From: Dehalococcoidia bacterium
Lineage (GTDB): Bacteria; Chloroflexota; Dehalococcoidia; Lucifugimonadales; UBA3495
Length of the DNA: 64,000 nt
NCBI GenBank assembly: GCA_963667675.1
Contig: OY763929.1
Span: 719,386 to 783,385, forward strand
Reading direction: 5' to 3'
Positions 5,224-43,681 of this stretch are shown here, piece by piece (position 1 is the stretch's first letter; each line of letters starts with the position of its first letter). The position numbers and the translations under genes were made by a program. The notes beneath the pieces were generated by a model. That model worked only from the letters and a program-made list of their open reading frames with translations. It ran no database searches and had not been told where the DNA came from.

Positions 5224-7539
5224 ATGCCGGGCGCCCTCGGCGGCATCCGCATCATCGATTTCGGCCATTACATAGCCGGCCCCTTGGCCGGCATGCTCCT
5301 GGCCGACCAGGGCGCCGACGTCATCAAGGTCGACCCGCCGGGAGGTCCCCGCTGGAAGGCTCCAGGAAACGCCACCTGGAACCGGGGCAAGCGCAGCATC
5401 GTCTTGGACCTGAAAGAGCGAGACGACCTGGCTGCCGCCCGCGCTCTTATCCAGACCGCCGATGTGGTGGTAGAAAACTTCCGACCCGGAGTTATGCACC
5501 GCCTGGGCTTGGGCGCAGAAGCGATGACCAGGGCCAACCCCCGGCTGGTGTACTGTTCTCTTCCGGGATTCGCGTCCGACGATCCCCGCGCCGCCGTGCC
5601 AGCCTACGAAGGTGTCGTCGGGGCCGCCACCGCCACCTACCTCGTGAAGTCGGGCAATAAAGACAGCGACCGGCCCGTCTATACCGGCCTGCCTATAGCC
5701 TCTACCTTTGCCGCCTTCCAGGGCGTCATAAGCATCGCCATGGCCCTCAACGCACGGCATCGGGACGGAACAGGGCAGCACGTCGAAGTCCCGTTGTTCG
5801 ACGCCATGTTCACCACCAACGCCTACCGCGCCATGAGCCACCACCACCCCAATGGCGTCACCTATCCCTACAGCAACGGCAGGTTCGGAGAACCCCGGCA
5901 TTACGGGCCCTGGAACGGTTTCTACCGGTGCAAAGACGGCCGCTGGTTCTACTTCAACGGGTCCTCCAACCGGAACTGGCGACAGGTCGTGGAAGCGGTC
6001 GGCATCACCTCCTGGGCCGCCCAGGGACTAACCGATTTCGACCTGTTGACCAATGACCCGGCAGTAGCCGAAGAGGCCATCCGGCAGGCCGGGGAGCTAT
6101 TCAAGACTCGCACGGCCCAGGAGTGGGAGGACCTGGTGGCCGAGGCGGGAGGCGAGGGCGCGCTCTGCCGCACCAGTGAAGAGTGGACCAAGCATCCCCA
6201 CGCCCGGCAGTCCAAGATGTTTGTACAGGTAAATGACCCGCTCTACGGCAGTATGCTGCAACCCAACGTCAACGTCCGCCTGTCCCAAGCGCCGGGTAAG
6301 GTGAGCGGCCCTGCGCCCGTCCTCGACCAGCATCGGGCGGAAATCCTCTCCTGGCTGGCATCCCATCGGCCGGACAACGGCCGCCCGGTAACAGAGACAA
6401 CAATGCGGGCCGCCATGGACGGAGTGCGGGTGCTGGACCTGTGCATCGAGCTGGCCGGCCCCACCCTGGGGCGCACCATGGCCGAGTTCGGCGCCGACGT
6501 AATCAAAATAAACCATCCCAGCCGGGAACCGGTAGTCGTCCTCCATAACGACATCAACCAGGGCAAGCGCAGCATCCTTCTGGACCTTAAGACCGAGCAA
6601 GGCCGGAATGTCTTCTGGAAGATGCTCGAGGACGCCGACGTGGTGGTCGAGAACTACCGGGCAGGCAAGCTGGAAGAACTGGGCCTGGGCTATGAAGACG
6701 TGCGCCGCCGCAAGCCGGGCATCATCTACGCCTCGCTCAAAGCCTACGGCCACGCCGGGCCATGGGCAGGACGCCCGGCCCACGACCCCTTCGTGCAGTC
6801 GGTTACTGGCATGGCCGTCCGTTTCGGTGGCGACGGAGTCCCGGTGCAGCAGCCCAGCCCGATAAACGATTACGGCACCGGCTTCATGGGCGCATACGGC
6901 GTGGCCTTGGCCCTGCTGCATCGGCGGCAGACCGGCGAGGGCCAACTAGTCGATGCTTCCCTCGCCTATACCGCCCTGACCTTCCAGTCTCCCTTCATGC
7001 AGTCGTACCAGGGCAAGACCTGGGACGAGCCCCATGGCCAAGACGCCTTGGGCAGTGGCCCCCTGCACCGCGCCTACCGCGCCCGGGACGGATGGCTATT
7101 CCTGGGCGCCCGGGAGTCGGACCTGCCGCGGATTGTGCGGGCCGATGGGCTGGAGGGCATCGAGCCGCTGCGCGGCAAGGCATTGGCCAAGGCATTGGAG
7201 ACCCGCTTCCCGGCAAAACCAGTGAGCGCGTGGGTAAGTGATCTCAACCACGCTGGCATCGGGGCCCACCGGGTGGTCACCGATTTCGCCGAGTTGATGT
7301 TCGACCCTTGGGTAAAAACCCACGGCCTCAGCCTCACCCGGGAACACGACGAAATCGGCCTGGTCACCACCTGCGGCCCGGCCTTCCGCCTGTCCCGCAC
7401 CCCCGTTCGGCCTGGGTGCCCCGCGCCCAAGCCCGGCAAGCACGCTCGCGAAATTCTGGAAGAACACGGCCTGGGCGACCAATACCAGCGGCTGGTGGAC
7501 GCCGGGGTAATAGTCGTAGACGGCGTCAAAGCCGGCTAG
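5224..7539 (+). CDS. tandem-fused family III (CaiB/BaiF) CoA-transferase, two complete domains in one chain
   Basis: RBS AAGGAG lies before ATG 5224. Two N-terminal signature segments are present: GIRIIDFGHYIAGPLAGMLLADQGADVIKVDPPGG (aa ~8) and GVRVLDLCIELAGPTLGRTMAEFGADVIKINHP (aa ~405). Total length is 771 aa, about twice the usual ~390. Confidence 0.85.
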   Translation: MPGALGGIRIIDFGHYIAGPLAGMLLADQGADVIKVDPPGGPRWKAPGNATWNRGKRSIVLDLKERDDLAAARALIQTADVVVENFRPGVMHRLGLGAEAMTRANPRLVYCSLPGFASDDPRAAVPAYEGVVGAATATYLVKSGNKDSDRPVYTGLPIASTFAAFQGVISIAMALNARHRDGTGQHVEVPLFDAMFTTNAYRAMSHHHPNGVTYPYSNGRFGEPRHYGPWNGFYRCKDGRWFYFNGSSNRNWRQVVEAVGITSWAAQGLTDFDLLTNDPAVAEEAIRQAGELFKTRTAQEWEDLVAEAGGEGALCRTSEEWTKHPHARQSKMFVQVNDPLYGSMLQPNVNVRLSQAPGKVSGPAPVLDQHRAEILSWLASHRPDNGRPVTETTMRAAMDGVRVLDLCIELAGPTLGRTMAEFGADVIKINHPSREPVVVLHNDINQGKRSILLDLKTEQGRNVFWKMLEDADVVVENYRAGKLEELGLGYEDVRRRKPGIIYASLKAYGHAGPWAGRPAHDPFVQSVTGMAVRFGGDGVPVQQPSPINDYGTGFMGAYGVALALLHRRQTGEGQLVDASLAYTALTFQSPFMQSYQGKTWDEPHGQDALGSGPLHRAYRARDGWLFLGARESDLPRIVRADGLEGIEPLRGKALAKALETRFPAKPVSAWVSDLNHAGIGAHRVVTDFAELMFDPWVKTHGLSLTREHDEIGLVTTCGPAFRLSRTPVRPGCPAPKPGKHAREILEEHGLGDQYQRLVDAGVIVVDGVKAG

Positions 7540-9764: not shown

Positions 9765-9928
9765 GGGTCGGCGGCAGCGGAGATTCGGGCATCGGTAGGG
9801 GCGGGTTTCAAACCCGCCCCTACGTGGTTGTGGGGGCGGTCATCTTCTTGGCCGGCGCGCAATGGGCTATAATGGCCCGAAAGCAGGCAAGGCAGCGCGA
9901 TGAAAGCGCCGTGGGCGGAGGAACGCAA

Positions 9929-21031: not shown

Positions 21032-21102
21032 TGGTGGGCCCGGATAGACTCGAACTATCGACCTCGGTCTTATCAGGACCGCGCTCTAACCACCTGAGCT
21101 AC
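21032..21102 (-). repeat. 71-nt 3' fragment of tRNA-Ile(GAU), a perfect direct repeat of 22256-22326
   Basis: Identical to the 3' 71 nt of the intact tRNA (including the encoded CCA). The 5' acceptor strand is replaced by unrelated sequence (GTCCCAA instead of GGGCCCG), so it cannot fold as a tRNA. Confidence 0.85.
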
Positions 21103-21215
21103 TTGGGACGAAGACGCAACCTAACCCCATGCAAGTTGGTGGGGCGTTTGTAGTACGGCATCCCGCTGAGTTTTTGCTTGCGAGGTTAGAGGTTATTAGC
21201 CGCGCAGTCAAGTGG

Positions 21216-22255: not shown

Positions 22256-22332
22256 TGGTGGGCCCGGATAGACTCGAACTATCGACCTCGGTCTTATCAG
22301 GACCGCGCTCTAACCACCTGAGCTACGGGCCC
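22256..22332 (-). tRNA. tRNA-Ile (anticodon GAU), CCA encoded
   Basis: The reverse strand reads GGGCCCGTAGCTCAGGTGGTTAGAGCGCGGTCCTGATAAGACCGAGGTCGATAGTTCGAGTCTATCCGGGCCCACCA. It has a full cloverleaf and the anticodon loop CTGATAA. Confidence 0.9.
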
Positions 22333-30373: not shown

Positions 30374-31198
30374 TCAGGCCTTGATTGACTTGATTACGTA
30401 GTGCAATGTGCCCTTGGGTACGTTGACCGTAACCTCGTCGCCTACCGTCCGGTCCATCAGCGCCTGGCCCACCGGCGACACCGTGGAAATCTTGCCCGAC
30501 GCCGCATCCGCTTCCCTGACGTCTACTAGGGTGTAATTGGCCTTCTTGCCCGTGTCCGCGTGCTCCAGGGTCACCCGCGCCCCAACCACCACCCGCTGGC
30601 TGGCCCGCCGCGAGGACTCGTTACGCAGGATCTGGGCGTTGTTGATGGCCGATTCCAACTCCCGGATGCGGGATTCGGTCAGGGCCTGCCGTTCCTTGGC
30701 CGCGTCCAAGGGAGCGTTTTCCCGGAAGTCCTTGTCCGCCATCGCCAGGCGAATGTCTTCTATCACGTTGATCCGGTCCACCTTCAGGACCTCTAATTGT
30801 GCCACCAGCCTGTCGTACCCTTCTTGCGTCAACTGGCTGCCCTGCTCCTCCCGGTTGGCCGGGGCGCTCTTCTTCCCGCTGCCCTTGCGTCCCCTGGGAA
30901 TTCGCAGATGCGACGCCAGGCCGTTCTGGATCCACCCCTCATCCTTCCAAAACCCCAGGAAGGCTTTCACCGAACTCAGCCGCTGGGCCGCTTCCTGGCC
31001 TCCCTGCCCCGCTTTCTCGGCATAGCTGGCTACTTCGGCTGGCGTCACCTCCACCACGTTCCTTTCCCGCCCGCAGTTATCGACGAACCGCGTCAGCGCC
31101 CGGTGGTCCAACTTCGCCCCCGCCCCGTTCTTCTTTGATGCCAGGAACATGGTTAAAGCTTGCGAAATGGATGGCTTGGCGTCAGTGGTCACCTTCAA
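30374..31198 (-). CDS. GreA/GreB-family transcript cleavage factor with a ~115-aa N-terminal extension
   Basis: The C-terminal ~155 aa has a coiled coil plus ...VVVGARVTLEH..TGKKANYTLV...ISTVSPVGQALMDRTVGDEVTVNVPKG, the GreA pattern. The N-terminal part is not GreA-like. Confidence 0.7.
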   Translation of the reverse strand: MKVTTDAKPSISQALTMFLASKKNGAGAKLDHRALTRFVDNCGRERNVVEVTPAEVASYAEKAGQGGQEAAQRLSSVKAFLGFWKDEGWIQNGLASHLRIPRGRKGSGKKSAPANREEQGSQLTQEGYDRLVAQLEVLKVDRINVIEDIRLAMADKDFRENAPLDAAKERQALTESRIRELESAINNAQILRNESSRRASQRVVVGARVTLEHADTGKKANYTLVDVREADAASGKISTVSPVGQALMDRTVGDEVTVNVPKGTLHYVIKSIKA

Positions 31199-31476
31199 TA
31201 CCTCCAGCGATTTGCCAGGTTGCTAACCTAAGCTAAGCCTTTGCGAAACCCAGCACAATCGCCTTTGCCGCATATTAAATCCACCATATATTGTCGACGC
31301 AATGACTGCTTTTCGGTGCGACATGCTGAACCTACGTATCACTCGTGAGAAGCCATCCGATATGATATCAGGTTCCAAATGGGATGGCAAACAGCCAACC
31401 ACGCCGGCAAGTTGTATACTACCGCCCGTAATACAATCCGCATCAGATGCCCTGTATCCCTTATAGGAGGACCACC

Positions 31477-32448
31477 ATGAAGGCAGTGCAGATAGACGAA
31501 TACGGCGGCCCAGAGGTCCTGAAATACCGGGATGTCGCCGACCCGACTCCCGGCCCCGGCGAGGCCGTGGTCGACGTTCAGGCCATAGGTGTCAACTTCA
31601 CCGATACCTATAGCCGGGCCGGTGTCAACCCGGTCCCCAGCTTGCCTTGGACCGTCGGCGTAGAGGCGGCCGGCGTGGTCAGCGCCGTCGGCCCCGAAGT
31701 ATCCGAGGTTGCCGAGGGCGACAACGTGGCTTTCTGTTCCTTTCCACCCGGTTGCTACGCAGAAAAGGTCGCAGTCCAGTCATGGCGGCTGGTCAAGCGG
31801 CCTGAGGGAGTCGACGCCCGGACGGGAGCCGCCGCCATACTCCAGGGCATGACCGCCCATTACCTGTGCCACTCCACCTATGCGGTGCAGGAGGGCGACC
31901 GCGTACTGGTCCACGCCGGCGCAGGCGGTACCGGCCTGCTCCTCACCCAGATGGTCAAGCGTCTCGGCGGCTACGTCTTCTCCACCGTGTCCACCGAGGA
32001 AAAGGCCGAGCTTTCCAGGGCCGCCGGAGCAGACCACGTGATTCTGTACACTCAGCAGGACTTCGCCGAGGAGGTCAAGAGCGCCACCAACGGCCAGGGC
32101 GTCCAGGCAGTCTACGACGCAGTCGGCCAGACCACCTTCGACCAGAGCGTCAGTTGCCTGGCCCGCCGCGGCTACATGGTGCTGTACGGACAGGCCAGCG
32201 GGGCCCCGGACCCCGTCGACCCTCGCCGCCTGGGACCAGGCTCCCTCTACCTCACCCGCCCGGGGCTGGCCGATTACATGGCCGACAGGGATGAACTGGA
32301 GAAACGCTCCACCGACGTCCTCGATTGGGTCCAGTCCGGCGAACTCAAGCTCAGGGTCGAGCACGTGTTTTCCCTTGGCGATGCCGCGGAAGCCCATCGC
32401 CAGTTGGAGGGACGGGCCACTACCGGCAAACTCCTCCTCATTCCCTGA
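31477..32448 (+). CDS. qor: NADPH:quinone oxidoreductase (zeta-crystallin/MDR family)
   Basis: MKAVQIDEYGGPEVLKY..., VHAGAGGTGLLLTQ, and it ends ...EAHRQLEGRATTGKLLLIP. RBS AGGAGG lies before ATG 31477. Confidence 0.85.
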   Translation: MKAVQIDEYGGPEVLKYRDVADPTPGPGEAVVDVQAIGVNFTDTYSRAGVNPVPSLPWTVGVEAAGVVSAVGPEVSEVAEGDNVAFCSFPPGCYAEKVAVQSWRLVKRPEGVDARTGAAAILQGMTAHYLCHSTYAVQEGDRVLVHAGAGGTGLLLTQMVKRLGGYVFSTVSTEEKAELSRAAGADHVILYTQQDFAEEVKSATNGQGVQAVYDAVGQTTFDQSVSCLARRGYMVLYGQASGAPDPVDPRRLGPGSLYLTRPGLADYMADRDELEKRSTDVLDWVQSGELKLRVEHVFSLGDAAEAHRQLEGRATTGKLLLIP

Positions 32449-32475
32449 TAGCCGGGCCCTGTTCCTACTCTCCAA

Positions 32476-35298
32476 ATGCCCAACATAGTCTCGGAACGGC
32501 CCGGCAAAGACAACGCCTCTCTTCGGATAAGCGGCTTCCTGGAACGGCGCGCCGGCATCGTCATCGCGGCCGCCCTAGCCCTGACGCTGCTGCTTATCAT
32601 CCCCCTCCTGGCCATGGATCCCGACGACGAGGCATCGAGCGACCCCGAGGGTCAGGTGTTTTATCTCTAAGACACCCTCGATCAGCGATTCCAGGCCGTG
32701 GTGCACGGCTCAGCCTACATCCTTGAAGCCCGGGACGGTGATGTCCTGACCCAGTCCGTCCTTTGGGAGTTGTACCGGAACACCCAGGAGTTGCGTGACG
32801 TGGACGCCCAGGGGCAGCTTGCTCCCGATTCTCTGCCCCGCCAGCCGTATCTATACTCTAGCTTCCAGACCTACACGCAACGCCCCTTCACCGGCGTGTC
32901 CACCATCGCCGACCACGTCCAGCAGGCGCTCCTGCAGGACCCCTCGCTAAAGGCCTCCTTGGAAACGGCAACCGACCAACAGGTTAAGCTGGCGGTCCAC
33001 CGGCTGCTGTCCAACCCCCTCACCGGCGGTCTGCAGAACACCCTTTCCGTAAAGGCCTCCAGCGTGAGCAGGGAAATAGCTGGCGAGACCATCGACTACT
33101 GGACCTCGCCGGGGTTGGTATTCACCGTGCTGGCCGACAACGACAAGCTGGGAGGACAGTCCGCCGTCCGCGGCGGGCTCGGCGCCGGCGACGCCGCCCT
33201 GGACAAGGAGAAGTTCAACCGCAACGTCCAGGACGTGCTGCGAGGGGACCAGCGCAGCTTCGAGCTTTGGGGCATCGCACTGGACCAGAACCTGGAAGCC
33301 GAAGACGAGGGCCGCATAGCCGGGATTTTCATCATGTTGACCGTCGTCACCGTGGTGATAGTGGTGGGTCTCAGCCTCCGGTCTTACTGGGCCATGGCGC
33401 TGACCGGGACGGGCCTGGGCGCAATGATGATTTGGCTGGGCGGCATCTCCAACCTGGTCGGCCTGAAGGACGGACTGGTCATAGATTTCATCGTCCCCAT
33501 CGCCATGGTGGCCCTGGGAGTGGACTTTGTCGTTCACGCCGTCCGCCGTTACCAGGAGGAGAAGAGCGCCGGCTACGCCCCCGGACCCGCCCTCCGGATA
33601 GGCCTCGCCGGGGTGATGGGCGCCCTGGTGCTGGCCATGCTCAGCGACGGCATCGCCTTCCTGGCCAACACCGCGTCGGGCATCGAGGCCGTGGTCCACT
33701 TCGGCCTCGCCGCCGGAATCGCCGTCGGGTCGTCGTTTCTCATCCTTGGCGTAGTTGCCCCCCTTGCCCTGGCCAAGATTGACCGGCTTAAGGCCGGCGA
33801 CAATCCACCGCCGGGGATCCTCGGCCACACAGCCAGGGCCTTCGGTGGGTTGGGCGTCGCGTCGATGTCCGCCAACGGCGTTCTGCTGCTTGTCGTCGGC
33901 ATCACCGTCCCCGGCGTCGGCCTCATCCTGGGGTCCATATTCATGTTCCTGCTGGTGCCCGCATTTTGGCTCCGCTTCCGCAACCGGGGCGCGCCGGAAC
34001 CGCCGGCCCAGGAAACCGTTGCCCCTCAGGAGGGGACCCTGGAGGCATGGCTCTCTTCCCTGGTCGTCCGCTTGGCCTGCTTCCGGCTGGCGGTGTTGTT
34101 GACCGCGGCGGGCATCACCGCCGGCGCCGTCGTGTTCGCCCTTCAACTGGAAGCCGAATTCGACGTCAAAGACTTCTTCGACAGCCAGTCCGACTTCGTT
34201 GTCGGCCTCGACAAGCTGGACGAGCACGTGGGCCAGCGGCGCGGCGAGCAGGCCCTCATATATCTGGAGGGCGACCTGGCCTCACCCCAGGCGCTGGCTT
34301 CCATACAGTTGCTAATTCAAAGGTTCGCGGCCAATCCCCACATTGCCAGGGACGCCGACGGGACCCCGTTCATCCAGGAACCCAACGTCGTCGACGTGCT
34401 AACCAGGGTAACCGCCTCTCCCTACGCCAGGGATCGGGTCCAGGAGATGACCGGCGTCCAGATCGATGACGGAAACGGCGACGGGTTGCCCGACACCCGC
34501 GAACAGGTTTCGGCGGTCATGGGCTACGCGGTCGCCTATGGGGTCCCCCTGGACGACGCCACTCTCGTCTACGACGCCGGAAGGGTCAGGGAAGTCCTGT
34601 CTTATCAACCGGCGGCCGGCCAAGACGCCGCCGCCTTGCTAACCCTCGGCATTCCCGATTCCAGGGAGCAAACGACAGTCAGGGTCGCCAGGGAAGCCCT
34701 CACCCAAGACCTTGCCTTCCTAGCCGATTCCCCAGTCATAACCGATTTCGGCATTACCGGCTCGCCCTTCGTACGCGAGGGCCAGCTTGCCGCCGTCACC
34801 AGCACGCTGCAGACCTCGCTGCCCATCGCGGTGGTCGCCACCCTCGCGCTGCTGCTGGTTGCCCTGCGCTCCGTCAGGTACGCGCTGGTGACCGTAGTCC
34901 CGGTGGTGCTCGTCGCCGCCTGGCTCTATGGCATCATGTACCTGGTGGGATTCAACCTCAACTTTGTGACCGCCACCATCGGCGCGGTTTCCATCGGCGT
35001 GGGCATCGACTATTCCGTCCACATGACCGTGCGCTTCAGGGAGGAACTGGGCAGGTCCGCCGACCGCATGAACGCCTTGCGCCGGGCGGCCAACGGCACG
35101 GGCATGGCCCTCGCGGTTTCGGCGATCTCATCGATTCTGGGGTTCGCCATCCTGGGATTCGCCCCCATGCCCATGTTTTCCGCCTTCGGCATCCTTACCG
35201 CAATTATGGTCTTCCTGGCCCTCGCCGCCTCGATAGTTGTGCTGCCCTCGTTGTTGCTCCTGGCCGCGCCCGACAAGGCCAAGGTCCCAGCCGCCTGA
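32476..35298 (+). pseudogene. MMPL/RND-superfamily transporter interrupted by an in-frame TAA (32668-32670)
   Basis: ORFs 32476-32670 (carrying TM1: GIVIAAALALTLLLIIPLLAM) and 32698-35298 (periplasmic loop then TM2-12) are in the same frame, separated by a single TAA. The downstream ORF alone lacks TM1. Confidence 0.65.
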
Positions 35299-35326
35299 CC
35301 CTCCGTCAACGCGTCCCTGTCCGTCC

Positions 35327-35833
35327 CTACACGTCCAATGACCGCCGTATGTCCCACTCATGGTGCACCGCATCGTGACAATTCGACTGCACCAGGTCCG
35401 TTAGGGAGATAAGCCCCCGCTCGGGATGGCTGAAAGTAGGCTCTCGCCGGACCGCGGCCTCAAACGCCTCTTGCCACGCCGCCGCCGCATGGGAGAGCGC
35501 CCAAAGCGCAGTACCCAGGGGGATGGACTCGTACCTCCGCACCGAAGCCAATTCGTCCTGGTCATAGGCTTCTATTTCTACGTGCCCGGCCTCCACCGAA
35601 CTCCACATCCGCTCGGCCCAAATCCGCAGATTATCGCCAACGTGACACACGTAGGCCCCCACCGACCAACGCAGCCCCGGATGCCGCACCGACCCGTCCC
35701 GACCCTCCAGCAGCCCAGCATACCGCCCCGGAATTTCAGCCACTATCGCCGCCGCTGCCTTTACCGAAATAGACCAATCAAACCCGCACTCTCTACAGGG
35801 GTTTCCGTATACCCTGATCCCCCAGGCATTCAC
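35327..35833 (-). CDS. DinB-superfamily (DinB_2-like) protein
   Basis: 168 aa with a GTG start. Four-helix-bundle His pattern (...YVCHVGDNL..., ...NCHDAVHHEWDI...). Confidence 0.6.
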   Translation of the reverse strand: MNAWGIRVYGNPCRECGFDWSISVKAAAAIVAEIPGRYAGLLEGRDGSVRHPGLRWSVGAYVCHVGDNLRIWAERMWSSVEAGHVEIEAYDQDELASVRRYESIPLGTALWALSHAAAAWQEAFEAAVRREPTFSHPERGLISLTDLVQSNCHDAVHHEWDIRRSLDV

Positions 35834-35872
35834 AGGCGCGCCTCCACCGGCAAGCTGCTGCTGATCCCCTGA
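35834..35872 (+). repeat. remnant B of a qor-type 3' end (...HRRASTGKLLLIP*)
   Basis: ACCGGCAAGCTGCTGCTGATCCCCTGA parallels the end of qor (ACCGGCAAACTCCTCCTCATTCCCTGA), mostly with synonymous-type differences. Confidence 0.6.
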
Positions 35873-36154
35873 TAGTGGTATATTTGACTCTAAACGACTC
35901 TATCGTTCCATCGTCCCAGGATTTACGTCCCAGCACTCAGGGCACATGCTATTCGCAAACCGACAGTTAGGCCGAACAAAATTGGAATCACCTTGACGGT
36001 CATTCACTGGGCCGTCGGTCGGTAACTCAGGCCCATCTCAAGTACTGTCGACGGTCACGTAGTAAACGGCGCGTGACGGGATAGCAGAAACGATGCTAGT
36101 GGACAGGTGGTTCTGCTATTATAAAGTCACAAAAACAACATTCAGTAGAGAGCG

Positions 36155-37846
36155 ATGACACTGCAAGAACCGCCATTAAAGTCTGAACTTAATCCCTTGG
36201 AAGATCGAGGAGCAAGATGCATCGACTCCTGGGTCTCCGAGGCTCCTCTAAAACTAGTGGCGTGGGCCTTGGAGTCCACTGGCCGGACCGCAAAAACCGT
36301 GGCTATCAGGGAAAAGATAACAAGCAACGTGGTGCAGGACTTTAATTGGAAGACCTGGTGGCGCAGGGTACTGCCGGCTGTGAAGGAATCACGCCATTTC
36401 AGTGTCCGCAGCAACAATTCCATCCGACTCATGGCAAAATTGGACGACATACCGGCTCGTCGTTGGGAACACCTTCCATCACCAGCCAAGAAGCCAAGGC
36501 AGAAATCGCCCTCGGTGGGCGATTGGCGGGCGTGGTTCCTAAACCCGACTCCGGAACCGCCCCCAGCGCGTTGGCCGACCAAGGCTGCGTATAACGCTCT
36601 CACCAAGCTTCCCACAAAGGACATAACACCCGCATTAGAGCGGACAATGTGGGGGGCTGGAGAATTCTTGGCATCGGACAGCCTTTCAGGCCAAGCTGCC
36701 ACGGCATGGATGGAGTCCGTGAGCCGCGCATTTGTGAGATTTAGAGACTTGGAAGACCTCGAGTCCGTCAGTTCTGGAGCCCGGTCTGTCGCTGAACTTT
36801 TAGCGCGGCTGGTAATAGTGGCCAGATTTACCACCCAAGCGGTTGAGTGTCTGGTCTCGACCGGTTCCTTCTCTAATCGACCATGTGTGTGGCAGCAAGG
36901 ATTTGCAGCAGGAATGTGGCGGGCTATGCAAGGTGCCGAGAACCACACTTCAGAGTTGCCGAGAGCCCTATTAGCCCATGTTGAGCCTCCAAGCCGCACC
37001 GAGCTTGCCAGGGACCTAATTCTAGGAGCATTGTTAGGACCCGACCCAACACGCGAGCATTTCAAACTAGACCGGTTGTTGGACCAGTTATCAGTACGCG
37101 ACCGAGCCAAGCTCATCTTGGAACTGATGGTTCGAGCTGGAACAGAAGATTCGTCTGCGGACAGGCTTCGAGACTACATTGCAAACAGCCGCTACGTTGG
37201 CCGGCTATCAGCTTCAGACGGACAACGCCTAGACGTGTTGGTCATAGCGTCTCTGCTTCTAACTGATGGCTCAGGGCCGATCGTCAGACAGGCATCACAG
37301 GAGATTAGAGAAGTGCTAGCTAGCCCTTCTGGACGCAAGCAACGCCCGATTTGGCGTGGTTTGTTAACCGAGGCCGAGCAACACATCGATGATCTACGGC
37401 GGGAACACCGTATTGCAGTACGGGATCTGCAATCGCACTATGAGAGCCAGTTGGAAGATAGCCGACGGCAGAAAGAAGAGCTAACCAAACAGGTGCAAAG
37501 TCTCAGATCTCAAATTGCCGCTGGTCGCGAGGAATCCAAGTTGGACATCCGCCAAGATATGTTGACTGTAATTGCAGACACTCTGCAATCCCTTCGCCGA
37601 TGGCAGGACAGTGAGGACCGAGTAGCTCACCACGTTGAGGCGAGGCTTATCCTAGCACTCCGGGCTGGTGGAGCCGAGGAATTTGGAGTCGTGGGGGAAA
37701 AATCCCCGTACAATCCCGCGCACCACCAAGCGTCGACGGAAATCACCGTCGACTCACCGGTGCGTGTATCCGCTCCAGGCGCAATTGTCCGTGGCTCATT
37801 GACAGGTGACCGCATCCTTGTAAAGGCACTTGTAGAAGAGGTATAG
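36155..37846 (+). CDS. 563-aa protein: unknown helical N-terminal ~400 aa, a coiled coil, and a GrpE-like C-terminal domain
   Basis: Long ORF in ~50% GC DNA. The C-terminus ...MLTVIADTLQSLRR...VEARLILALRAGGAEEFGVVGEKSPYNPAHHQASTEITVDSPVRVSAPGAIVRGSLTGDRILVKALVEEV aligns by eye with the GrpE C-terminal half (LLPVIDSLDRAL...GVEVI...G..FDPNVHQA...RAAMVTV). Confidence 0.6.
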   Translation: MTLQEPPLKSELNPLEDRGARCIDSWVSEAPLKLVAWALESTGRTAKTVAIREKITSNVVQDFNWKTWWRRVLPAVKESRHFSVRSNNSIRLMAKLDDIPARRWEHLPSPAKKPRQKSPSVGDWRAWFLNPTPEPPPARWPTKAAYNALTKLPTKDITPALERTMWGAGEFLASDSLSGQAATAWMESVSRAFVRFRDLEDLESVSSGARSVAELLARLVIVARFTTQAVECLVSTGSFSNRPCVWQQGFAAGMWRAMQGAENHTSELPRALLAHVEPPSRTELARDLILGALLGPDPTREHFKLDRLLDQLSVRDRAKLILELMVRAGTEDSSADRLRDYIANSRYVGRLSASDGQRLDVLVIASLLLTDGSGPIVRQASQEIREVLASPSGRKQRPIWRGLLTEAEQHIDDLRREHRIAVRDLQSHYESQLEDSRRQKEELTKQVQSLRSQIAAGREESKLDIRQDMLTVIADTLQSLRRWQDSEDRVAHHVEARLILALRAGGAEEFGVVGEKSPYNPAHHQASTEITVDSPVRVSAPGAIVRGSLTGDRILVKALVEEV

Positions 37847-37856
37847 GAGTTCATTT

Positions 37857-39524
37857 GTGAAAGTAGTGGGTGTGGATTTCGGCACAACCAACATTCGTAT
37901 TGCAACCTGGGATCCCAGTCAGACCGATATACCACCTAAATCTAGTCTGATTGGGCAAGGTGACGCTACTACTATGCCAGCGGTAGTTGCATTCCAGCGG
38001 CGACGGGGACGCACCGTATCGACTATAGTGGGAGAGGATGCGGATAATCTAGTGGATAGCGCCGACACAGTAGTGCTGCGCAACATCAAACGCTGGGCTC
38101 TTGCTAATGACCCCTTCGTATGTTGGAATCTGGAATCCAGAAGTATTCCACGTCCGACTTGGTGGAACCAAGAAACCCGATGTGTTGAGGTTTGGGGAGA
38201 GCAGATTCCTGTTGAGAAAATTATGCATGAAATCTTGGCTGAGGCCTTTCGACGGGCTAACTTAAGCGGGGACTTTGAATGGCGGGCTGGGTGCCCGGTT
38301 CACGCCGGTCTTGACTACCGTTCCGAGTTGGCCCGCACAATTTCCAATTTCGGCGGCGTCAACAGCGTTTCATCGGTGATTGAGGAACCGATCCTATTCC
38401 TTGCGTTGGCTCAGGAATTTGGCGTCCTTTCTCCAGGTGGTTCCTACATGATATTTGATCTGGGTGGAGGCTCCTTTGACTGCGCCTTGAGTGAAGTGGA
38501 TTCGAAAGGGCGCATAGTAGTGTACGCGTCTCATGGAGACCCATTGCTAGGGGGATCTGAGGTAGACCGGCACCTCAAGGAGAAATTGGATTATGCTGGG
38601 CCAGACAACTTGCTACGAATTGCCAAAGAACAACTTTCACTTTCGAACCCCACCCAAGCAGTGGATGCCGGATTGAGTCTTTCCAGTGCAGACGTAGATT
38701 GTGTCCTGAGAAAGAAGCGTTTTGTGGAACGGACTCGGCTTCCGATGCGGGAAGCATATATTTGGGCGAAGGTCATCTGGAAACGGGAAGAGGATGCGTC
38801 CCCAATCGGCAACATTCCTCCATGCAGGCTAGAGATGTTACCAACTGCTTTTGAGAAAGATCTGGATGGCATCATTCTGTCTGGTGGCCCCACCAAGTCC
38901 TCATTTTTCCGCGAGAAACTCTCGGAAATCTTCGGGGCCGACATGGTGATTCCTGCTGAACAGCTGGTGCCCCAAGATATTGCTGACCCGGAATTGACCG
39001 GCCTAAGCATGGGGGCATGTTACATTTCGGGAGAGCAAACCCAACCCCTTTATGTCAGCCGCCTGCCATTTAAAGTCACGCTGCATCACGTACCTTCTGG
39101 GGACAAAGTAGAATACGAACCTTACAGGCATTTTGTTTACAACTTCAGTCCGGCCAAACCGTTTGAGTCTGAATGTCTACCCCCAAGGCCGCAAGCTGAT
39201 ACTAAATACGTTCTGACAATCTCCGATGCTAATGGCGAACTCCTCGAGAGCAAGCCAATAGATTTCAGCAAAGGCGGAGGCCCCCAGTCAGCCGTGCGGT
39301 CTCCTCAATTGGTGATTGACATTTTTGGTCGCATTGGTGTCGCCAACGACAAAACTAGTAAACCCTGGATTGAAATCGAGAATCCGCCCTGGCAAACTGG
39401 CCGACAGAAGGAACTGCGTCACGACCTTTTCAAGAGACAGCGGGCCTACGAACAAAGCGAAGGGGCTCGGGTACACAAGCTGATAACAGAGAATCCCTTC
39501 GGCTGGCAGACAGGCCACGGCTAA
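37857..39524 (+). CDS. divergent Hsp70/actin-fold ATPase with a non-canonical ~150-aa C-terminal beta-rich domain
   Basis: GTG start, 7 nt after the RBS AGGAG that overlaps the upstream stop. Motifs VGVDFGTTNIRIA (phosphate 1), MIFDLGGGSFDCAL (phosphate 2) and IILSGGPTKSSFFREKL (adenosine). No DnaK-like substrate-binding or lid sequence is recognisable. Confidence 0.75.
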   Translation: MKVVGVDFGTTNIRIATWDPSQTDIPPKSSLIGQGDATTMPAVVAFQRRRGRTVSTIVGEDADNLVDSADTVVLRNIKRWALANDPFVCWNLESRSIPRPTWWNQETRCVEVWGEQIPVEKIMHEILAEAFRRANLSGDFEWRAGCPVHAGLDYRSELARTISNFGGVNSVSSVIEEPILFLALAQEFGVLSPGGSYMIFDLGGGSFDCALSEVDSKGRIVVYASHGDPLLGGSEVDRHLKEKLDYAGPDNLLRIAKEQLSLSNPTQAVDAGLSLSSADVDCVLRKKRFVERTRLPMREAYIWAKVIWKREEDASPIGNIPPCRLEMLPTAFEKDLDGIILSGGPTKSSFFREKLSEIFGADMVIPAEQLVPQDIADPELTGLSMGACYISGEQTQPLYVSRLPFKVTLHHVPSGDKVEYEPYRHFVYNFSPAKPFESECLPPRPQADTKYVLTISDANGELLESKPIDFSKGGGPQSAVRSPQLVIDIFGRIGVANDKTSKPWIEIENPPWQTGRQKELRHDLFKRQRAYEQSEGARVHKLITENPFGWQTGHG

Positions 39525-39571
39525 GCAGACTCCTCCCACTACACCGCTCCCTGTAAAAGGTTCCGTCGCGT

Positions 39572-39650
39572 GCTTGGCCAAGGGGCGACGGAAGTCCACC
39601 GGCAGTTGGAGGGACTGGCGACCACCGGCAAGCTGCTGCTTATCCCCTAA
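39572..39650 (+). repeat. remnant C of a qor-type 3' end (...LGQGATEVHRQLEGLATTGKLLLIP*)
   Basis: About 75 nt paralleling qor 32375-32448 (SLGDAAEAHRQLEGRATTGKLLLIP*) with scattered substitutions and one codon indel. Confidence 0.7.
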
Positions 39651-39739
39651 CAGTTGACCGCTTCACTAGACTATTCCTATAATGAGCCCAGGTTCAATCG
39701 ACGGGGAATAGGCCCAGGTCCGACCTAGAGGAGACAAAA

Positions 39740-40869: not shown

Positions 40870-42771
40870 CTACTTCTTCCCGTTCTTCCCCACCTTGACC
40901 TTGACCTTCTTCTCTTTCTTGGCCTTGGCGGGTTTCTCTTCCTTGCCCCTGCGCCGCTGAGATCTCACCAGGCGGCCGCTGCGCGCCCCGTCGGCCGTGA
41001 TGTTCATCAACAGTTCCACTTCCAGGTTCATCGCTTCCTGGGAATAGGCGCTCTGCTCGCCCATCCTGCGGAACTTCTGGTAGCGCCGCTTCAGCAGCTT
41101 GCCCGTGGACATCCTGGACAACTCAGCCAGTTGTTTGCCCGCCGCCAGCCCCACCTCGTTGGCCGCTTCTCGGGGACTGGTATGGGCCCCGCCCTCTGGC
41201 TCGCATACCACCTGGTCGGCAATGCTTAGCTCCAGGCAGTCCTGCGCCGTCAACATCAACGCTTCCGCAGCCTCTCGGTCCAGCATGTGGTCCGGGTACG
41301 GCCCCCCCAGATGCCGGTTCAGCGATATGGGAGAATAAATCGAGTATTGCTGCATCAGGATGCGGTCCGACAATCCCAGAGCCAACGCTCCCTCGCTGCC
41401 GCCCTCTCCAATGATGACGGAAACGATGGGCACCGGCGCCTCTGCCATTTGCGACAGCGTAGTCGCCACCGCGTTCCCTATTCCCTGCTCTTCCGCCTCC
41501 AGGCCGGGGTCCGCTCCGTTGGTGTCGATAAGCGTAACCAAGGGGAGCTTGAACCGTGACGCCAGCGAGATCAGCCGCTGCGCTTTTCTCAGCCCGTCCG
41601 GGTAGACGTGGTACCGCTCGCCCTCCAGCAGGTGAGTCCGCTGCTGGCCGATGACCACCACCGGCTCCCCGTGCAGCACTCCGACCCCTCCTACTATCGA
41701 CCGGTCGTCGCTGTTCAGCCGGTCCCCCCTTAACTCCACGAAGGGGTCTAGCATCGAGTGAATATATGTCATTGCCAGGGGACGCTCCGGATGGCGCGCA
41801 ATGGTCACCGACTCCCATACCTCGGCGCCGGGCGGTGTGTCCAACTCTGTTTTGAGCAGCGCCTTGTGATTGCCCTTGCCCTGCCCCTGGGAGGTAAACA
41901 GTTGCAGCAGCGTCGCCAGCCGCGATTGGAGCACCTCCCGGTCCACCACGTTGTCCAGCAGCCCGTGGCTCAGGTGGGCCTCCGCAGTGTGGGCGTCCAA
42001 CGGCAATGGCGTGTTGGACGCCGCCCGCAGGGCCCGCAGCGGCGCCAGGCCTATCATCGACCCTGGCTCGGCAAGTATTACGTCCGCCAGGTTGGCGAAA
42101 CTGGCATAGGCCTGGCCCGTCGATGGATTCGACAGCACCACGATGAAGGGTGTCCCCTCCTCCCTCAAGCGGTTGGCCGCCGTCACCGTCTTGGCCATCT
42201 GCATCAGGGAAAGCACCCCTTCCTGCATCCGGCTCCCGCCGCCCGATACCATCGCCACCACAGGCAGGCTCTTCCGGGCCGCCGTCTCGAAGGCTCTGGC
42301 CACTTTTTCTCCCACCACGATGCCCATGCTGCCGCCCATAAACCCGAAGTCCAGCGCCGCCACCATAACCTCAATGTCGTCGATTCGACACCGTCCGGTC
42401 ACCGCGGCTTCAGTCAGCCCGGTGGAGCTCTGGTCCTGGCTCAGCAGGTTGCGGTACTTGCCCCTTTGGGAAAAGGACAGCGGCTCCGTAGAACTCAGGT
42501 ATTTGTGGGACTCTTTGAACGACCCCTTGTCCGCCAGCAACTCGATGCGTTCCCTGGCGGTCAGGGTATAGTGGAACCGGCAGTAGGGGCACACCCGGTA
42601 GGTCAGGTATGCCGAAGACTCCCGTATATCCTCCTCGCACAGCAGGCAACGGTCATGAACGGTGGAGAGGCGCGCCGCCTCAGCGTCACCGTTCCGCCCG
42701 AACAGGTGTACCAGAAAGCTCGCCAGGTTTCTCAGTTTCGCGCCTCCGCCGTTTGCTTCCTTGCGCCCCAT
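40870..42771 (-). CDS. accD/accA: acetyl-CoA carboxylase carboxyltransferase, fused beta (AccD) and alpha (AccA) subunits, with a Lys-rich tail
   Basis: N-terminal zinc ribbon CLLCEE...CPYCRFHY, followed by two crotonase-like CT halves. The C-terminal tail is KEEKPAKAKKEKKVKVKVGKNGKK. The start at ATG 42771 (MGRKEANGG) is preferred because the track start 42996 overlaps the divergent gene. Confidence 0.85.
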   Translation of the reverse strand: MGRKEANGGGAKLRNLASFLVHLFGRNGDAEAARLSTVHDRCLLCEEDIRESSAYLTYRVCPYCRFHYTLTARERIELLADKGSFKESHKYLSSTEPLSFSQRGKYRNLLSQDQSSTGLTEAAVTGRCRIDDIEVMVAALDFGFMGGSMGIVVGEKVARAFETAARKSLPVVAMVSGGGSRMQEGVLSLMQMAKTVTAANRLREEGTPFIVVLSNPSTGQAYASFANLADVILAEPGSMIGLAPLRALRAASNTPLPLDAHTAEAHLSHGLLDNVVDREVLQSRLATLLQLFTSQGQGKGNHKALLKTELDTPPGAEVWESVTIARHPERPLAMTYIHSMLDPFVELRGDRLNSDDRSIVGGVGVLHGEPVVVIGQQRTHLLEGERYHVYPDGLRKAQRLISLASRFKLPLVTLIDTNGADPGLEAEEQGIGNAVATTLSQMAEAPVPIVSVIIGEGGSEGALALGLSDRILMQQYSIYSPISLNRHLGGPYPDHMLDREAAEALMLTAQDCLELSIADQVVCEPEGGAHTSPREAANEVGLAAGKQLAELSRMSTGKLLKRRYQKFRRMGEQSAYSQEAMNLEVELLMNITADGARSGRLVRSQRRRGKEEKPAKAKKEKKVKVKVGKNGKK

Positions 42772-42952
42772 CCCGCAGATCGCCTCCTCACCCGCACACC
42801 GGTCTGTTCTTATCATACAGTGTGCTGCCCCAAAATAAAACGACGTGACCGCATACCGTGATAGAATGTCGCCATCCGGCGGTTTAAGTCGTCGGACTCC
42901 GCATCCCCATATCCGCACGTTTGGGGGTAATTCAGCCTGAGGAGGAACGCCC

Positions 42953-43681
42953 ATGCCCGCTAGCTGGGTAGACATCGACGTCAACGGACAGACCATGGAG
43001 GGCTATCTGGCCCAGCCCGAAGACGAGGGCAGCCGCCCGGCCGTTGTTGTGATTCAAGAGATTTGGGGTGTCAACTCCCACATCCAGTCCGTCACCGACA
43101 AGCTCCCTGCACAAGGATACGTGGGGCTCGCCCCCGCGATGTTCCACCGCCAGGGACGCATGACCATGGGTCTCCACGAGGAAATGGACACCGCCATCGC
43201 CAACATGTTCAAGTGCAGCGACGCTGAAATCGTCGCCGACGTGCAGGCCGCGGTCGACTACCTCAAGGCCCAGCCCTTCGTTCAGGCCGACCGCATTGGC
43301 ATCGTGGGCTTCTGTTTCGGCGGCAGGGTCTCCTACCTGGCGGCCTGCAACGTCTCGGACTTGAAGGCCTCCGTCGTGTACTACGGCGGCATGATTACGG
43401 ACCCCCTCGGCGGCGACGGCCCCTCTCCCTTCGACCAGACCGCCAACATCAACGCCCCCATGCTGGGACTGTTCGGCGAGGATGACTCCAGTCCCAGTCC
43501 TGCCGACGTGGCCGCCATACAAGCCGTGCTTCAAAAGCACGGCAAGACCCACGAGTTTCACTTGTATCCCGGCTGCGGCCACGGCTTCAACTGCGAGTCC
43601 AGGGACAGCTACCGCCCCGAAGCCGCTGCCGACGCCTGGTCCAAGGCCATAGCCTGGTTCGACCAGCACCTGAAGGCCTAG
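42953..43681 (+). CDS. dienelactone hydrolase family protein
   Basis: ...PAVVVIQEIWGVN..., the nucleophile region IGIVGFCFGG, and ...YPGCGHGF. Confidence 0.8.
   Translation: MPASWVDIDVNGQTMEGYLAQPEDEGSRPAVVVIQEIWGVNSHIQSVTDKLPAQGYVGLAPAMFHRQGRMTMGLHEEMDTAIANMFKCSDAEIVADVQAAVDYLKAQPFVQADRIGIVGFCFGGRVSYLAACNVSDLKASVVYYGGMITDPLGGDGPSPFDQTANINAPMLGLFGEDDSSPSPADVAAIQAVLQKHGKTHEFHLYPGCGHGFNCESRDSYRPEAAADAWSKAIAWFDQHLKA

Follow-up and report, generated by a model that had tools for sequence, protein, structure and literature searches.

What does a bacterium do with an Hsp70-like ATPase whose gene lies directly behind that of a large protein ending in a GrpE-like domain? The question is raised by a gene pair in the window, a 64,000-nucleotide (nt) stretch of contig OY763929.1 from a Dehalococcoidia bacterium; all coordinates are positions in the window. 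The pair occupies a 3.8-kb segment of low guanine-cytosine (GC) content, which consists of two co-directional, coupled open reading frames (ORF1 and ORF2) and flanking 33-nt direct repeats. Homology of ORF2 to Hsp70 and of the ORF1 C-terminus to the exchange factor GrpE is close to certain. The reading proposed here is that ORF2 is a dedicated Hsp70-like ATPase which its nucleotide-exchange adaptor, ORF1, directs to DNA or to transcription complexes, a proposal with about even chances of being right.

36155-37846, plus strand: ORF1, 563 amino acids (aa), ATG start, TAG stop
37857-39524, plus strand: ORF2, 555 aa, GTG start
37845-37849, plus strand: ORF2 ribosome-binding site AGGAG, overlapping the ORF1 TAG stop, 7 nt before the GTG

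The original prediction, made from the nucleotide sequence, described two long co-directional ORFs with a 10-nt gap and an AGGAG element that overlaps the ORF1 stop and indicates translational coupling. The ORF coordinates agree on both points, and most related loci go further, with the ORF1 stop codon overlapping the ORF2 start (gap -1 or -4). All six peptide motifs quoted in that prediction are present in the ORF1 and ORF2 translations.

ORF2 and ORF1 as relatives of Hsp70 and GrpE

ORF2 contains an N-terminal nucleotide-binding domain (NBD) and a C-terminal region of about 165 aa.

37857-39026, plus strand: ORF2 NBD (aa 1-390), Hsp70/actin fold, from Pfam, PDB and Foldseek matches
39027-39524, plus strand: ORF2 C-terminal region (aa 391-555), from the AlphaFold2 model and conserved columns

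ORF2 scores 42.5 bits against the Pfam HSP70 family (PF00012), above the cut-off of 20.6, and its residues 2-362 align to the DnaK NBD in the PDB with E=1e-13. The AlphaFold2 model of ORF2, with a predicted local distance difference test (pLDDT) of 88.5 and a predicted template-modelling score (pTM) of 0.88, retrieves DnaK and BiP with Foldseek at E ~1e-25. Across 54 homologues, D7, K78, E177, D201, G203-205, S206, D208, G343, and G344 are invariant. These are the equivalents of DnaK D8, K70, E171, D194, the GGG loop, T199 (Ser here), D201, and the second GG loop. Because the catalytic residues are all invariant, ORF2 is predicted to be an ATPase-competent Hsp70-fold protein, and the Hsp70/actin ATPase motifs that had been read in it are thereby confirmed.

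ORF2 is nevertheless far from DnaK itself. Against the DnaK equivalogs NCBIfam TIGR02350 and NF001413 it reaches 52-53 bits (cut-offs 822 and 648), and against HscA models 44 bits (cut-offs 620-743). The DnaK scores argue against the pair being the housekeeping dnaK/grpE of the organism with an odd composition, or a set of decaying pseudogenes, an explanation that is highly improbable. Membership of the two proteins in the Hsp70 and GrpE superfamilies is what it has in its favor; ORF2 lacks a sequence-recognizable substrate-binding domain (SBD), however, and ORF1 is a 563-aa protein with three extra modules.

The C-terminal region of ORF2 comprises a conserved PLYVxRLP linker, an eight-stranded beta domain (aa 406-507), a long helix (aa 515-544), and a low-confidence end. 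As a family profile, its ~165 aa have no PDB or Pfam match, and comparison with a DnaK SBD profile by hhalign gives 0.4%, with no sequence similarity. The original prediction of a beta-rich tail without a DnaK-like SBD or lid is therefore correct by sequence, but the AlphaFold2 model qualifies it, since the eight strands and single 30-residue helix match an SBD-beta with a truncated lid in both size and order. Foldseek alignments of ORF2 to full-length DnaK span ~600 columns, and a greedy full-length hhalign also runs through the SBD, where its register is unreliable. Judged by its sequence, the client-binding region is either replaced or remodeled beyond recognition.

The extreme tail of ORF2 (aa 542-555, 39480-39521, pLDDT <70) carries a clade-conserved TxNPxGWQ / NPxGWQ motif, and in the large syntenic clade the tail instead reads DRPAxLEV(N/F). 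Hsp70 EEVD tails bind TPR co-chaperones. By analogy, the NPxGWQ tail could serve as a docking peptide for the solenoid of ORF1.

In DnaK, residues R167, N170, and T173 contact the J domain; they align to Ser, Glu, and Ile in ORF2. A J-domain protein adjoins the pair in one of ~70 loci (L071), so that the predicted absence of a J-protein is accurate apart from this single case. Because the J-contact residues are replaced and no J-protein is linked to the pair, the ORF2 cycle is probably J-independent. The exceptional locus (L071:3334-6083) encodes a DNA N6/N4 methyltransferase followed by a 220-aa DnaJ-like protein with a J domain and a partial DnaJ_C, both co-directional with the pair and directly upstream of it.

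ORF1 is a multidomain protein (AlphaFold2 model, mean pLDDT 84.1) in which the GrpE-like part is C-terminal and is the best conserved region.

aa 1-19: ORF1 disordered tail (AlphaFold2 model)
36212-36430, plus strand: ORF1 winged helix-turn-helix (wHTH; aa 20-92), modeled order H-H-E-H-H-E-E, invariant W65/W68/W69-type tryptophans
aa 120-395: ORF1 alpha-solenoid, an alpha-helical repeat region (AlphaFold2 model; Foldseek matches to TPR- and HEAT-like repeat proteins)
aa 398-482: ORF1 85-residue helix (AlphaFold2 model)
aa 487-504: ORF1 short helix (AlphaFold2 model)
aa 507-562: ORF1 beta domain of six strands (AlphaFold2 model)
37430-37843, plus strand: GrpE-homologous region of ORF1 (~aa 426-563), comprising the long-helix end, bundle helix, and beta domain, with the motifs NPAHHQA and DRILVKALV

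The relationship to GrpE is evident in profile-profile comparison. A GrpE profile was built from 13 true GrpE sequences, taken from E. coli and from a range of plasmid-borne genes, and hhalign of the ORF1-family C-terminus against it gives 95.7% (P=1e-8, 130 columns). With the coiled coil removed (aa 484-563), the match remains at 93.7% (P=2e-7) and maps to residues 116-191 of E. coli GrpE, against 0.2-0.4% for negative cross-controls. Against E. coli GrpE as a single sequence, the family reaches 3.5% and the DPxxHQA motif alone is aligned. The GrpE motif (Y/F)DPxxHQA is retained in the consensus of the family, where the arginine aligned to E. coli GrpE R183, R553 in ORF1, is near-invariant.

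The ORF1 model has the elements of the GrpE fold: a very long helix, a short helix, and a compact C-terminal beta-sheet domain (pLDDT 80-95). Foldseek aligns it to Thermus thermophilus GrpE (3a6m_A) with prob 1.00 over 190 columns (TMt 0.45). Three of 57 ORF1 homologues touch the Pfam GrpE family (PF01025), with a best E of 0.0063 that falls short of the curated threshold. The collinearity with GrpE noted in the original prediction is thus supported by profile-profile and fold comparison only. Most family members are unnamed; the rest are labeled "hypothetical protein", apart from two to which the automated JGI pipeline assigned "molecular chaperone GrpE".

The ~400 aa of ORF1 that precede this region had been described as helical sequence with no recognizable motif. 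The N-terminal wHTH and the alpha-solenoid character of the middle part were missed there. DNA binding is predicted for the wHTH. ORF1 homologues carry the precomputed Pfam family PF27167 "HTH_GRAD", which covers part of ORF1; curators have therefore seen the family, and the meaning of the name was not found in the literature. A reading of "GRAD" as "GreA-associated" was discarded, as an extended GreA encoded near the pair of the sister genome (L001) shows no similarity to ORF1.

In many ORF1 relatives, the N-terminus is extended by ~50 aa. The profile built from 28 such extensions matches C-terminal Tudor domains of UvrD/PcrA in the PDB (9dqs, E=1.7e-6; 6yi2 and 7egs, 5.6e-5; UvrD1, 2e-4; PcrA, 2.5e-3). 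The same search also returns the RNA-polymerase-interaction domain (RID) of Mfd (0.015) and, weakly, CarD (0.39). The domain occurs in 30 of ~70 ORF1 homologues (~40%), in no other neighboring ORF, and had escaped the original prediction. The UvrD/PcrA and Mfd class of Tudor domains interacts with RNA polymerase, and PcrA His681 and Trp684 are needed for binding (PMC5397179). In the ORF1 family the Tudor histidine is near-invariant, and the residue before the first conserved glycine is often aromatic. A search for a degenerate Tudor remnant upstream of the window ORF1 found none.

Pairing, distribution and mobility of the cassette

ORF1 and ORF2 travel together. By tblastn, 72 of 73 loci have an ORF1 homologue as the gene immediately before ORF2; in L073, a 30%-identical pair, the ORF1 homologue was missed by tblastn and recovered by ORF clustering and ORF listing. 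Clustering of neighboring ORFs leaves ORF1 and ORF2 as the sole universal genes, and pairwise identity among the ORF1 proteins tracks that among the ORF2 proteins (r=0.88, Mantel p=0.001). Adjacency, coupling, and correlated divergence all bear out strict co-conservation.

A scan with two peptide patterns of 185,579 species, one genome per species, found at least 69 loci, all in Chloroflexota and nearly all in metagenome-assembled genomes (MAGs) of Dehalococcoidia. The count is a lower bound on the spread of the pair because the patterns are family-specific. Within this one class the distribution is patchy. The restriction to Chloroflexota, mostly Dehalococcoidia, had not been recognized in the original prediction. 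The ORF1 family is rare: an exhaustive search with a hidden Markov model (HMM) found 326 relatives among 1.84 billion representatives, and 137 of these reach E<=1e-30. Housekeeping GrpE, in contrast, occurs in nearly all bacteria, which is a further point against the housekeeping explanation, as is the restriction to 69 loci in a single phylum. The sub-cut-off scores of ORF2, the rarity of the ORF1 family, and the patchy distribution uphold the original view of a pair distinct from the housekeeping dnaK-grpE-dnaJ set. The literature search found no paper describing this pair.

In one Dehalococcoidia genome the pair is present twice on the same contig, CBDDED010000003.1 (L009 and L072), at a distance of 1.3 Mb, with ORF2 proteins 55% and 54% identical to that of the window. 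Several long-read MAGs (L004/L006, L005, L008, L054, and L063) have one of the two genes, ORF1 or ORF2, broken into two ORFs, and the L004 split adjoins a DDE_3 transposase. The split ORFs may be real pseudogenes or homopolymer sequencing errors.

The cassette is distinguished from its surroundings by composition and by flanking repeats.

35844-35876, plus strand: left copy of the 33-nt imperfect direct repeat, 30/33 identical to the right copy
39622-39654, plus strand: right copy of the direct repeat and cassette boundary, 30/33 identical to the left copy
36114-36122, plus strand: extended -10-like promoter element TGCTATTAT, ~35 nt 5' of the ORF1 start, consensus-based

In 500-nt windows, GC is 0.50-0.58 across 35750-39500 against 0.62-0.68 in the flanks. 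The mean for the pair is 0.533, which is 0.10 lower than the 0.637 and 0.629 of the 5-kb flanks, and GC at third codon positions (GC3) is 0.52-0.55 in the pair against 0.79-0.84 in neighboring genes. The low-GC island of the original prediction is thus real, with a value nearer 53% than the 50% estimated by eye. The coordinates given there for the segment coincide with the direct-repeat pair. Two matches to the repeat pattern occurred in 0 of 100 shuffles. A second, smaller GC dip (0.536) lies at 31000-31500, ~5 kb left of the cassette, in a stretch collinear with L001 5667-8103. The direct repeat was also considered as a duplicated gene 3' end, as both copies read TGKLLLIP-stop; no ORF supports this, and the reading was treated as coincidence.

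The element upstream of ORF1 is a candidate promoter whose function is read from the consensus alone. The block GTT(C/T)TG(C/T)TATnATA is kept upstream of ORF1 in L001, L007, L049, and L072. An inverted-repeat operator upstream of ORF1 was rejected: it is seen only in the window, in L001, and weakly in L044, and the broadly conserved element is the extended -10. A near-consensus sigma-70 promoter (TTGACC, 18 nt, TATAAT; 11/12) at 39654-39683 begins on the last base of the right repeat. It is conserved in L001 and L214 and presumably drives the FeS_assembly_P-Mrp operon.

Comparison with other loci shows that the site is variable. In the sister genome L001, diverged copies of the direct repeat lie left and right of the pair, though the left-flank genes differ. 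In L064, a 104-nt direct repeat flanks the pair (5862-5965 and 9803-9906, 88% identical), and its left copy is the 3' end of the 8-oxoguanine glycosylase gene (OGG), which fits an integration that duplicated a gene end. L034 and L013 have flanking repeats of 34 nt and 23 nt, and these, together with the L064 repeat, lie above the null distribution. On a metagenomic contig with 93% nt identity downstream (L214), homology to the window stops at 39652, the end of the right repeat; unrelated DNA lies left of the break, and no ORF2 3' end is found upstream. A metagenome scan for empty sites with the repeat motif returned at least 120 matches, of which those listed were unrelated. The MMPL and DinB_2 genes of the window (32437-35843) are absent from the otherwise collinear L001, where a GreA/ADH block abuts the left repeat, so variation of the interval between ADH and the FeS-assembly operon occurs at more than one scale.

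The cassette shares with genomic islets its flanking direct repeats, its shift in composition, and the variable occupancy of its site. Only two genes lie between the repeats in the window, neither of them a recombinase, and no tRNA lies nearby. Horizontal acquisition at an insertion hotspot, as first proposed, is supported by the repeats, the low GC and GC3, the variable occupancy, and the L214 break.

The pair evolves rapidly. Between the window and L001, the flanking genes for the FeS-assembly protein, Mrp, and the acetyl-CoA carboxylase carboxyltransferase (ACC) are 97-99% identical at the protein level, with synonymous divergence (dS) of 0.16-0.44, nonsynonymous divergence (dN) of 0.008-0.016, and dN/dS of 0.02-0.05. 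ORF1 is 70% identical (dS 0.78, dN 0.18, dN/dS 0.23) and ORF2 78% identical (dS 0.72, dN 0.13, dN/dS 0.18), so that the dN of the pair is 10-20 times that of the flanks. It follows that the cassette is under selection but evolves ~10 times faster, or that alleles are exchanged at the locus. The dN/dS of 0.18-0.23, a sign of purifying selection on both genes, and the invariant catalytic residues argue against decay. The cassette is accessory, Chloroflexota-confined (mostly Dehalococcoidia), fast-evolving, and horizontally moved within the group.

Such behavior raises the possibility of an anti-phage or conflict module, in which the Tudor, wHTH, and solenoid modules of ORF1 would sense an invader, for instance through phage takeover of RNA polymerase or through foreign DNA, and the ATPase would act on a phage or host target by sequestering it, unfolding it, or taking it apart. 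This account is unlikely. It would explain the 70-78% identity of the pair beside flanks of 97-99%, a GC3 of ~0.52 against ~0.82 in neighboring genes of both genomes, the patchy distribution with varied contexts, repeats, and a variable hotspot, and also the two copies in one genome and the apparent frameshifts in some loci. It is opposed by a dN/dS well under 1 and by the lack of a recognizable effector domain (nuclease, TIR, pore, or protease), and the literature search tied no Hsp70-like/GrpE-like pair to defense.

The genomic context also speaks against a conflict module. In the window, the cassette is flanked by genes for an MMPL transporter, a DinB_2 protein, an FeS-assembly protein, Mrp/NBP35, and ACC. 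The last (40870-42996, minus strand) encodes a single protein of 708 aa that matches both Carboxyl_trans and ACCA, apparently a beta-alpha fusion. Near the cassette, neither a tRNA nor an Rfam element was found; two tRNA-Ile(GAT) genes on the minus strand (21036-21109 and 22256-22332, 1.2 kb apart) are unrelated to it. About 30 loci lie inside a shared housekeeping synteny block of GFO/IDH/MocA oxidoreductases, S26 signal peptidase, MaoC-like dehydratase, and PfkB, which indicates vertical inheritance in one clade. The 126 immediate neighbors in 36 non-syntenic loci are overwhelmingly metabolic, with isolated defense-type matches only (one pVip, one methyltransferase, and one UvrD-like protein). 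DDE transposases adjoin the pair in two of these 36 variable loci, and no integrase domain was found among the neighbor families listed.

No system model in PADLOC-DB v2.0 matches the pair: ORF2 has no match, and ORF1 has coiled-coil noise (ZorA, 0.0047; LeoBC, 0.05). No relative was found on IMG/VR viral contigs. Because the neighbors are housekeeping genes and neither a PADLOC match nor a viral contig was found, a defense-island setting is not supported. The defense-island or att-site context that had been suggested gives way to metabolic neighbors, scattered defense singletons, and a cassette with no tRNA nearby.

Proposed mechanism

In the proposed mechanism, ORF1 would dimerize through its long helix, as GrpE does, and its GrpE-like domain would dock on the ORF2 NBD and govern ADP/ATP exchange. 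ORF1 would then be both exchange factor and targeting subunit, because its GrpE-like domain would govern ORF2 nucleotide exchange. The N-terminal modules of ORF1 (the wHTH, the solenoid, and, in relatives, the Tudor domain) would bring the ATPase to its site of action, where it would remodel or release DNA-bound or transcription-associated complexes. A target of this kind is considered the most likely because ~40% of the family carry the RNA-polymerase-binding Tudor domain and all keep the wHTH. The Tudor-less ORF1 of the window would have to rely on the wHTH alone. Targeting to nucleic acid or RNA polymerase has slightly less than an even chance for the ORF1 family and is doubtful for the Tudor-less ORF1 of the window.

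Several points weigh against this mechanism. Formation of a GrpE/Hsp70-like complex by ORF1 and ORF2 is likely, but it is argued from homology and gene linkage alone. ORF1 has no GrpE match at E<=1 in Pfam or NCBIfam, and what it matches there and in the PDB is coiled-coil noise; the ORF1-family HMM recovers no GrpE from the PDB and no canonical GrpEs from the 1.84 billion representatives. The Foldseek match to GrpE is weak (E=0.078, rank 23), which is attributed to the several domains of the ORF1 model. Only some of the DnaK-contacting residues of GrpE are retained in ORF1, and its GrpE-like domain could act as a static tether instead of an exchange factor. The wHTH profile has no significant relative in the PDB, and this domain might have protein or RNA as its ligand, or do no more than autoregulate the operon. 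The window ORF1 and its nearest relatives begin at the wHTH and lack the Tudor domain, so for this protein the link to RNA polymerase is carried over from proteins of paralogous architecture. A conflict system would account at least as well as a transcription accessory for the rapid evolution, the low GC, and the patchy distribution.

Autoregulation is central to a further alternative, a client- or stress-specific chaperone without any link to transcription, whose wHTH would only control its own operon and whose solenoid would bind a dedicated client for the ATPase. HspR, which uses DnaK as a co-repressor, offers an analogy. In favor of this alternative are the operon's own conserved extended -10 promoter, the missing Tudor domain of the window ORF1, and the likeness of the solenoid to protein-binding scaffolds of the TPR and HEAT type; the low-confidence ORF2 tail with its clade-conserved NPxGWQ also recalls EEVD tails. 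A chaperone of this type is nonetheless improbable. The two genes of the pair are the only universal ones, so no candidate client gene is co-conserved, and no inverted-repeat operator is conserved upstream across loci. The recurrence of the Tudor domain in 30 of ~70 homologues is hard to square with autoregulation.

Relation to known systems and significance

The adaptor-directed ATPase proposed here resembles DnaK-GrpE (PDB 1DKG, 4ANI). The NBD fold and all catalytic residues are shared, the genes are adjacent in one operon, and the long helix, bundle helix, and beta domain of ORF1 are homologous to those of GrpE, DPxxHQA included. Unlike GrpE, the module makes up the C-terminal quarter of a 563-aa protein with a wHTH and an alpha-solenoid (and a Tudor domain in relatives), and it is too divergent for HMM detection. 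Unlike DnaK, ORF2 has no sequence-recognizable SBD or lid and no DnaK J-contact residues. The cassette also contains neither dnaJ nor hrcA and is accessory, rare, and lineage-restricted. The pair is thus DnaK-GrpE-like at its core, yet it falls below the DnaK equivalog cut-offs and the Pfam GrpE threshold and departs from DnaK in both SBD and J contacts.

HscA/HscB and HscC(YbeW)/DjlC are dedicated, narrow-task Hsp70 ATPases that are likewise encoded beside their own co-chaperone. These systems pair an Hsp70 with a J-protein and need no exchange factor. In the cassette, by contrast, the partner is an exchange-factor homologue, the J-protein is missing, and HscA models matched weakly.

The Tudor domain of UvrD/PcrA and the RIDs of Mfd and CarD correspond to the N-terminal domain in ~40% of the ORF1 family, in which the histidine and GxG are kept. 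In the ORF1 family, however, this domain is fused to a GrpE-like adaptor and not to a helicase, translocase, or transcription factor, and the window ORF1 is without it. HspBP1 and Sil1 are alpha-solenoids. The eukaryotic BAG-1M/Hap46 and HspBP1/Fes1/Sil1 proteins are exchange factors with targeting modules, and the analogy to them is architectural only, as their exchange domains have BAG or armadillo folds and share no homology with GrpE. BAG-1M is reported to bind DNA and to affect transcription (PMC2672009).

Bacterial Hsp70 systems are usually seen as DnaK/DnaJ/GrpE plus a few J-protein-driven specialists, with GrpE in the part of a small exchange factor that serves one purpose. In the cassette, the GrpE module instead forms the working end of a large protein with a proposed targeting role, and there is no J-protein. 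The pair could represent an undescribed class of Hsp70 system, in which a GrpE-derived adaptor recruits a J-independent ATPase to RNA polymerase or DNA and thereby remodels or evicts transcription complexes or senses phage takeover of transcription, although in this full form the idea is speculative and rather unlikely. Whether for transcription remodeling and eviction or for immune sensing, this would be a new use of the Hsp70 cycle in bacteria. If the mechanism proposed above is right, bacteria would have evolved exchange factors of the adaptor type, on a par with eukaryotic BAG, HspBP1, and Sil1, and the Hsp70 cycle could be aimed at the transcription apparatus or DNA. The pair illustrates how much remote homology is missed by routine annotation. 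With nonsynonymous divergence 10-20 times that of its neighbors, it is also an obvious candidate to consider when new conflict systems are sought in the Chloroflexota, an under-studied group.

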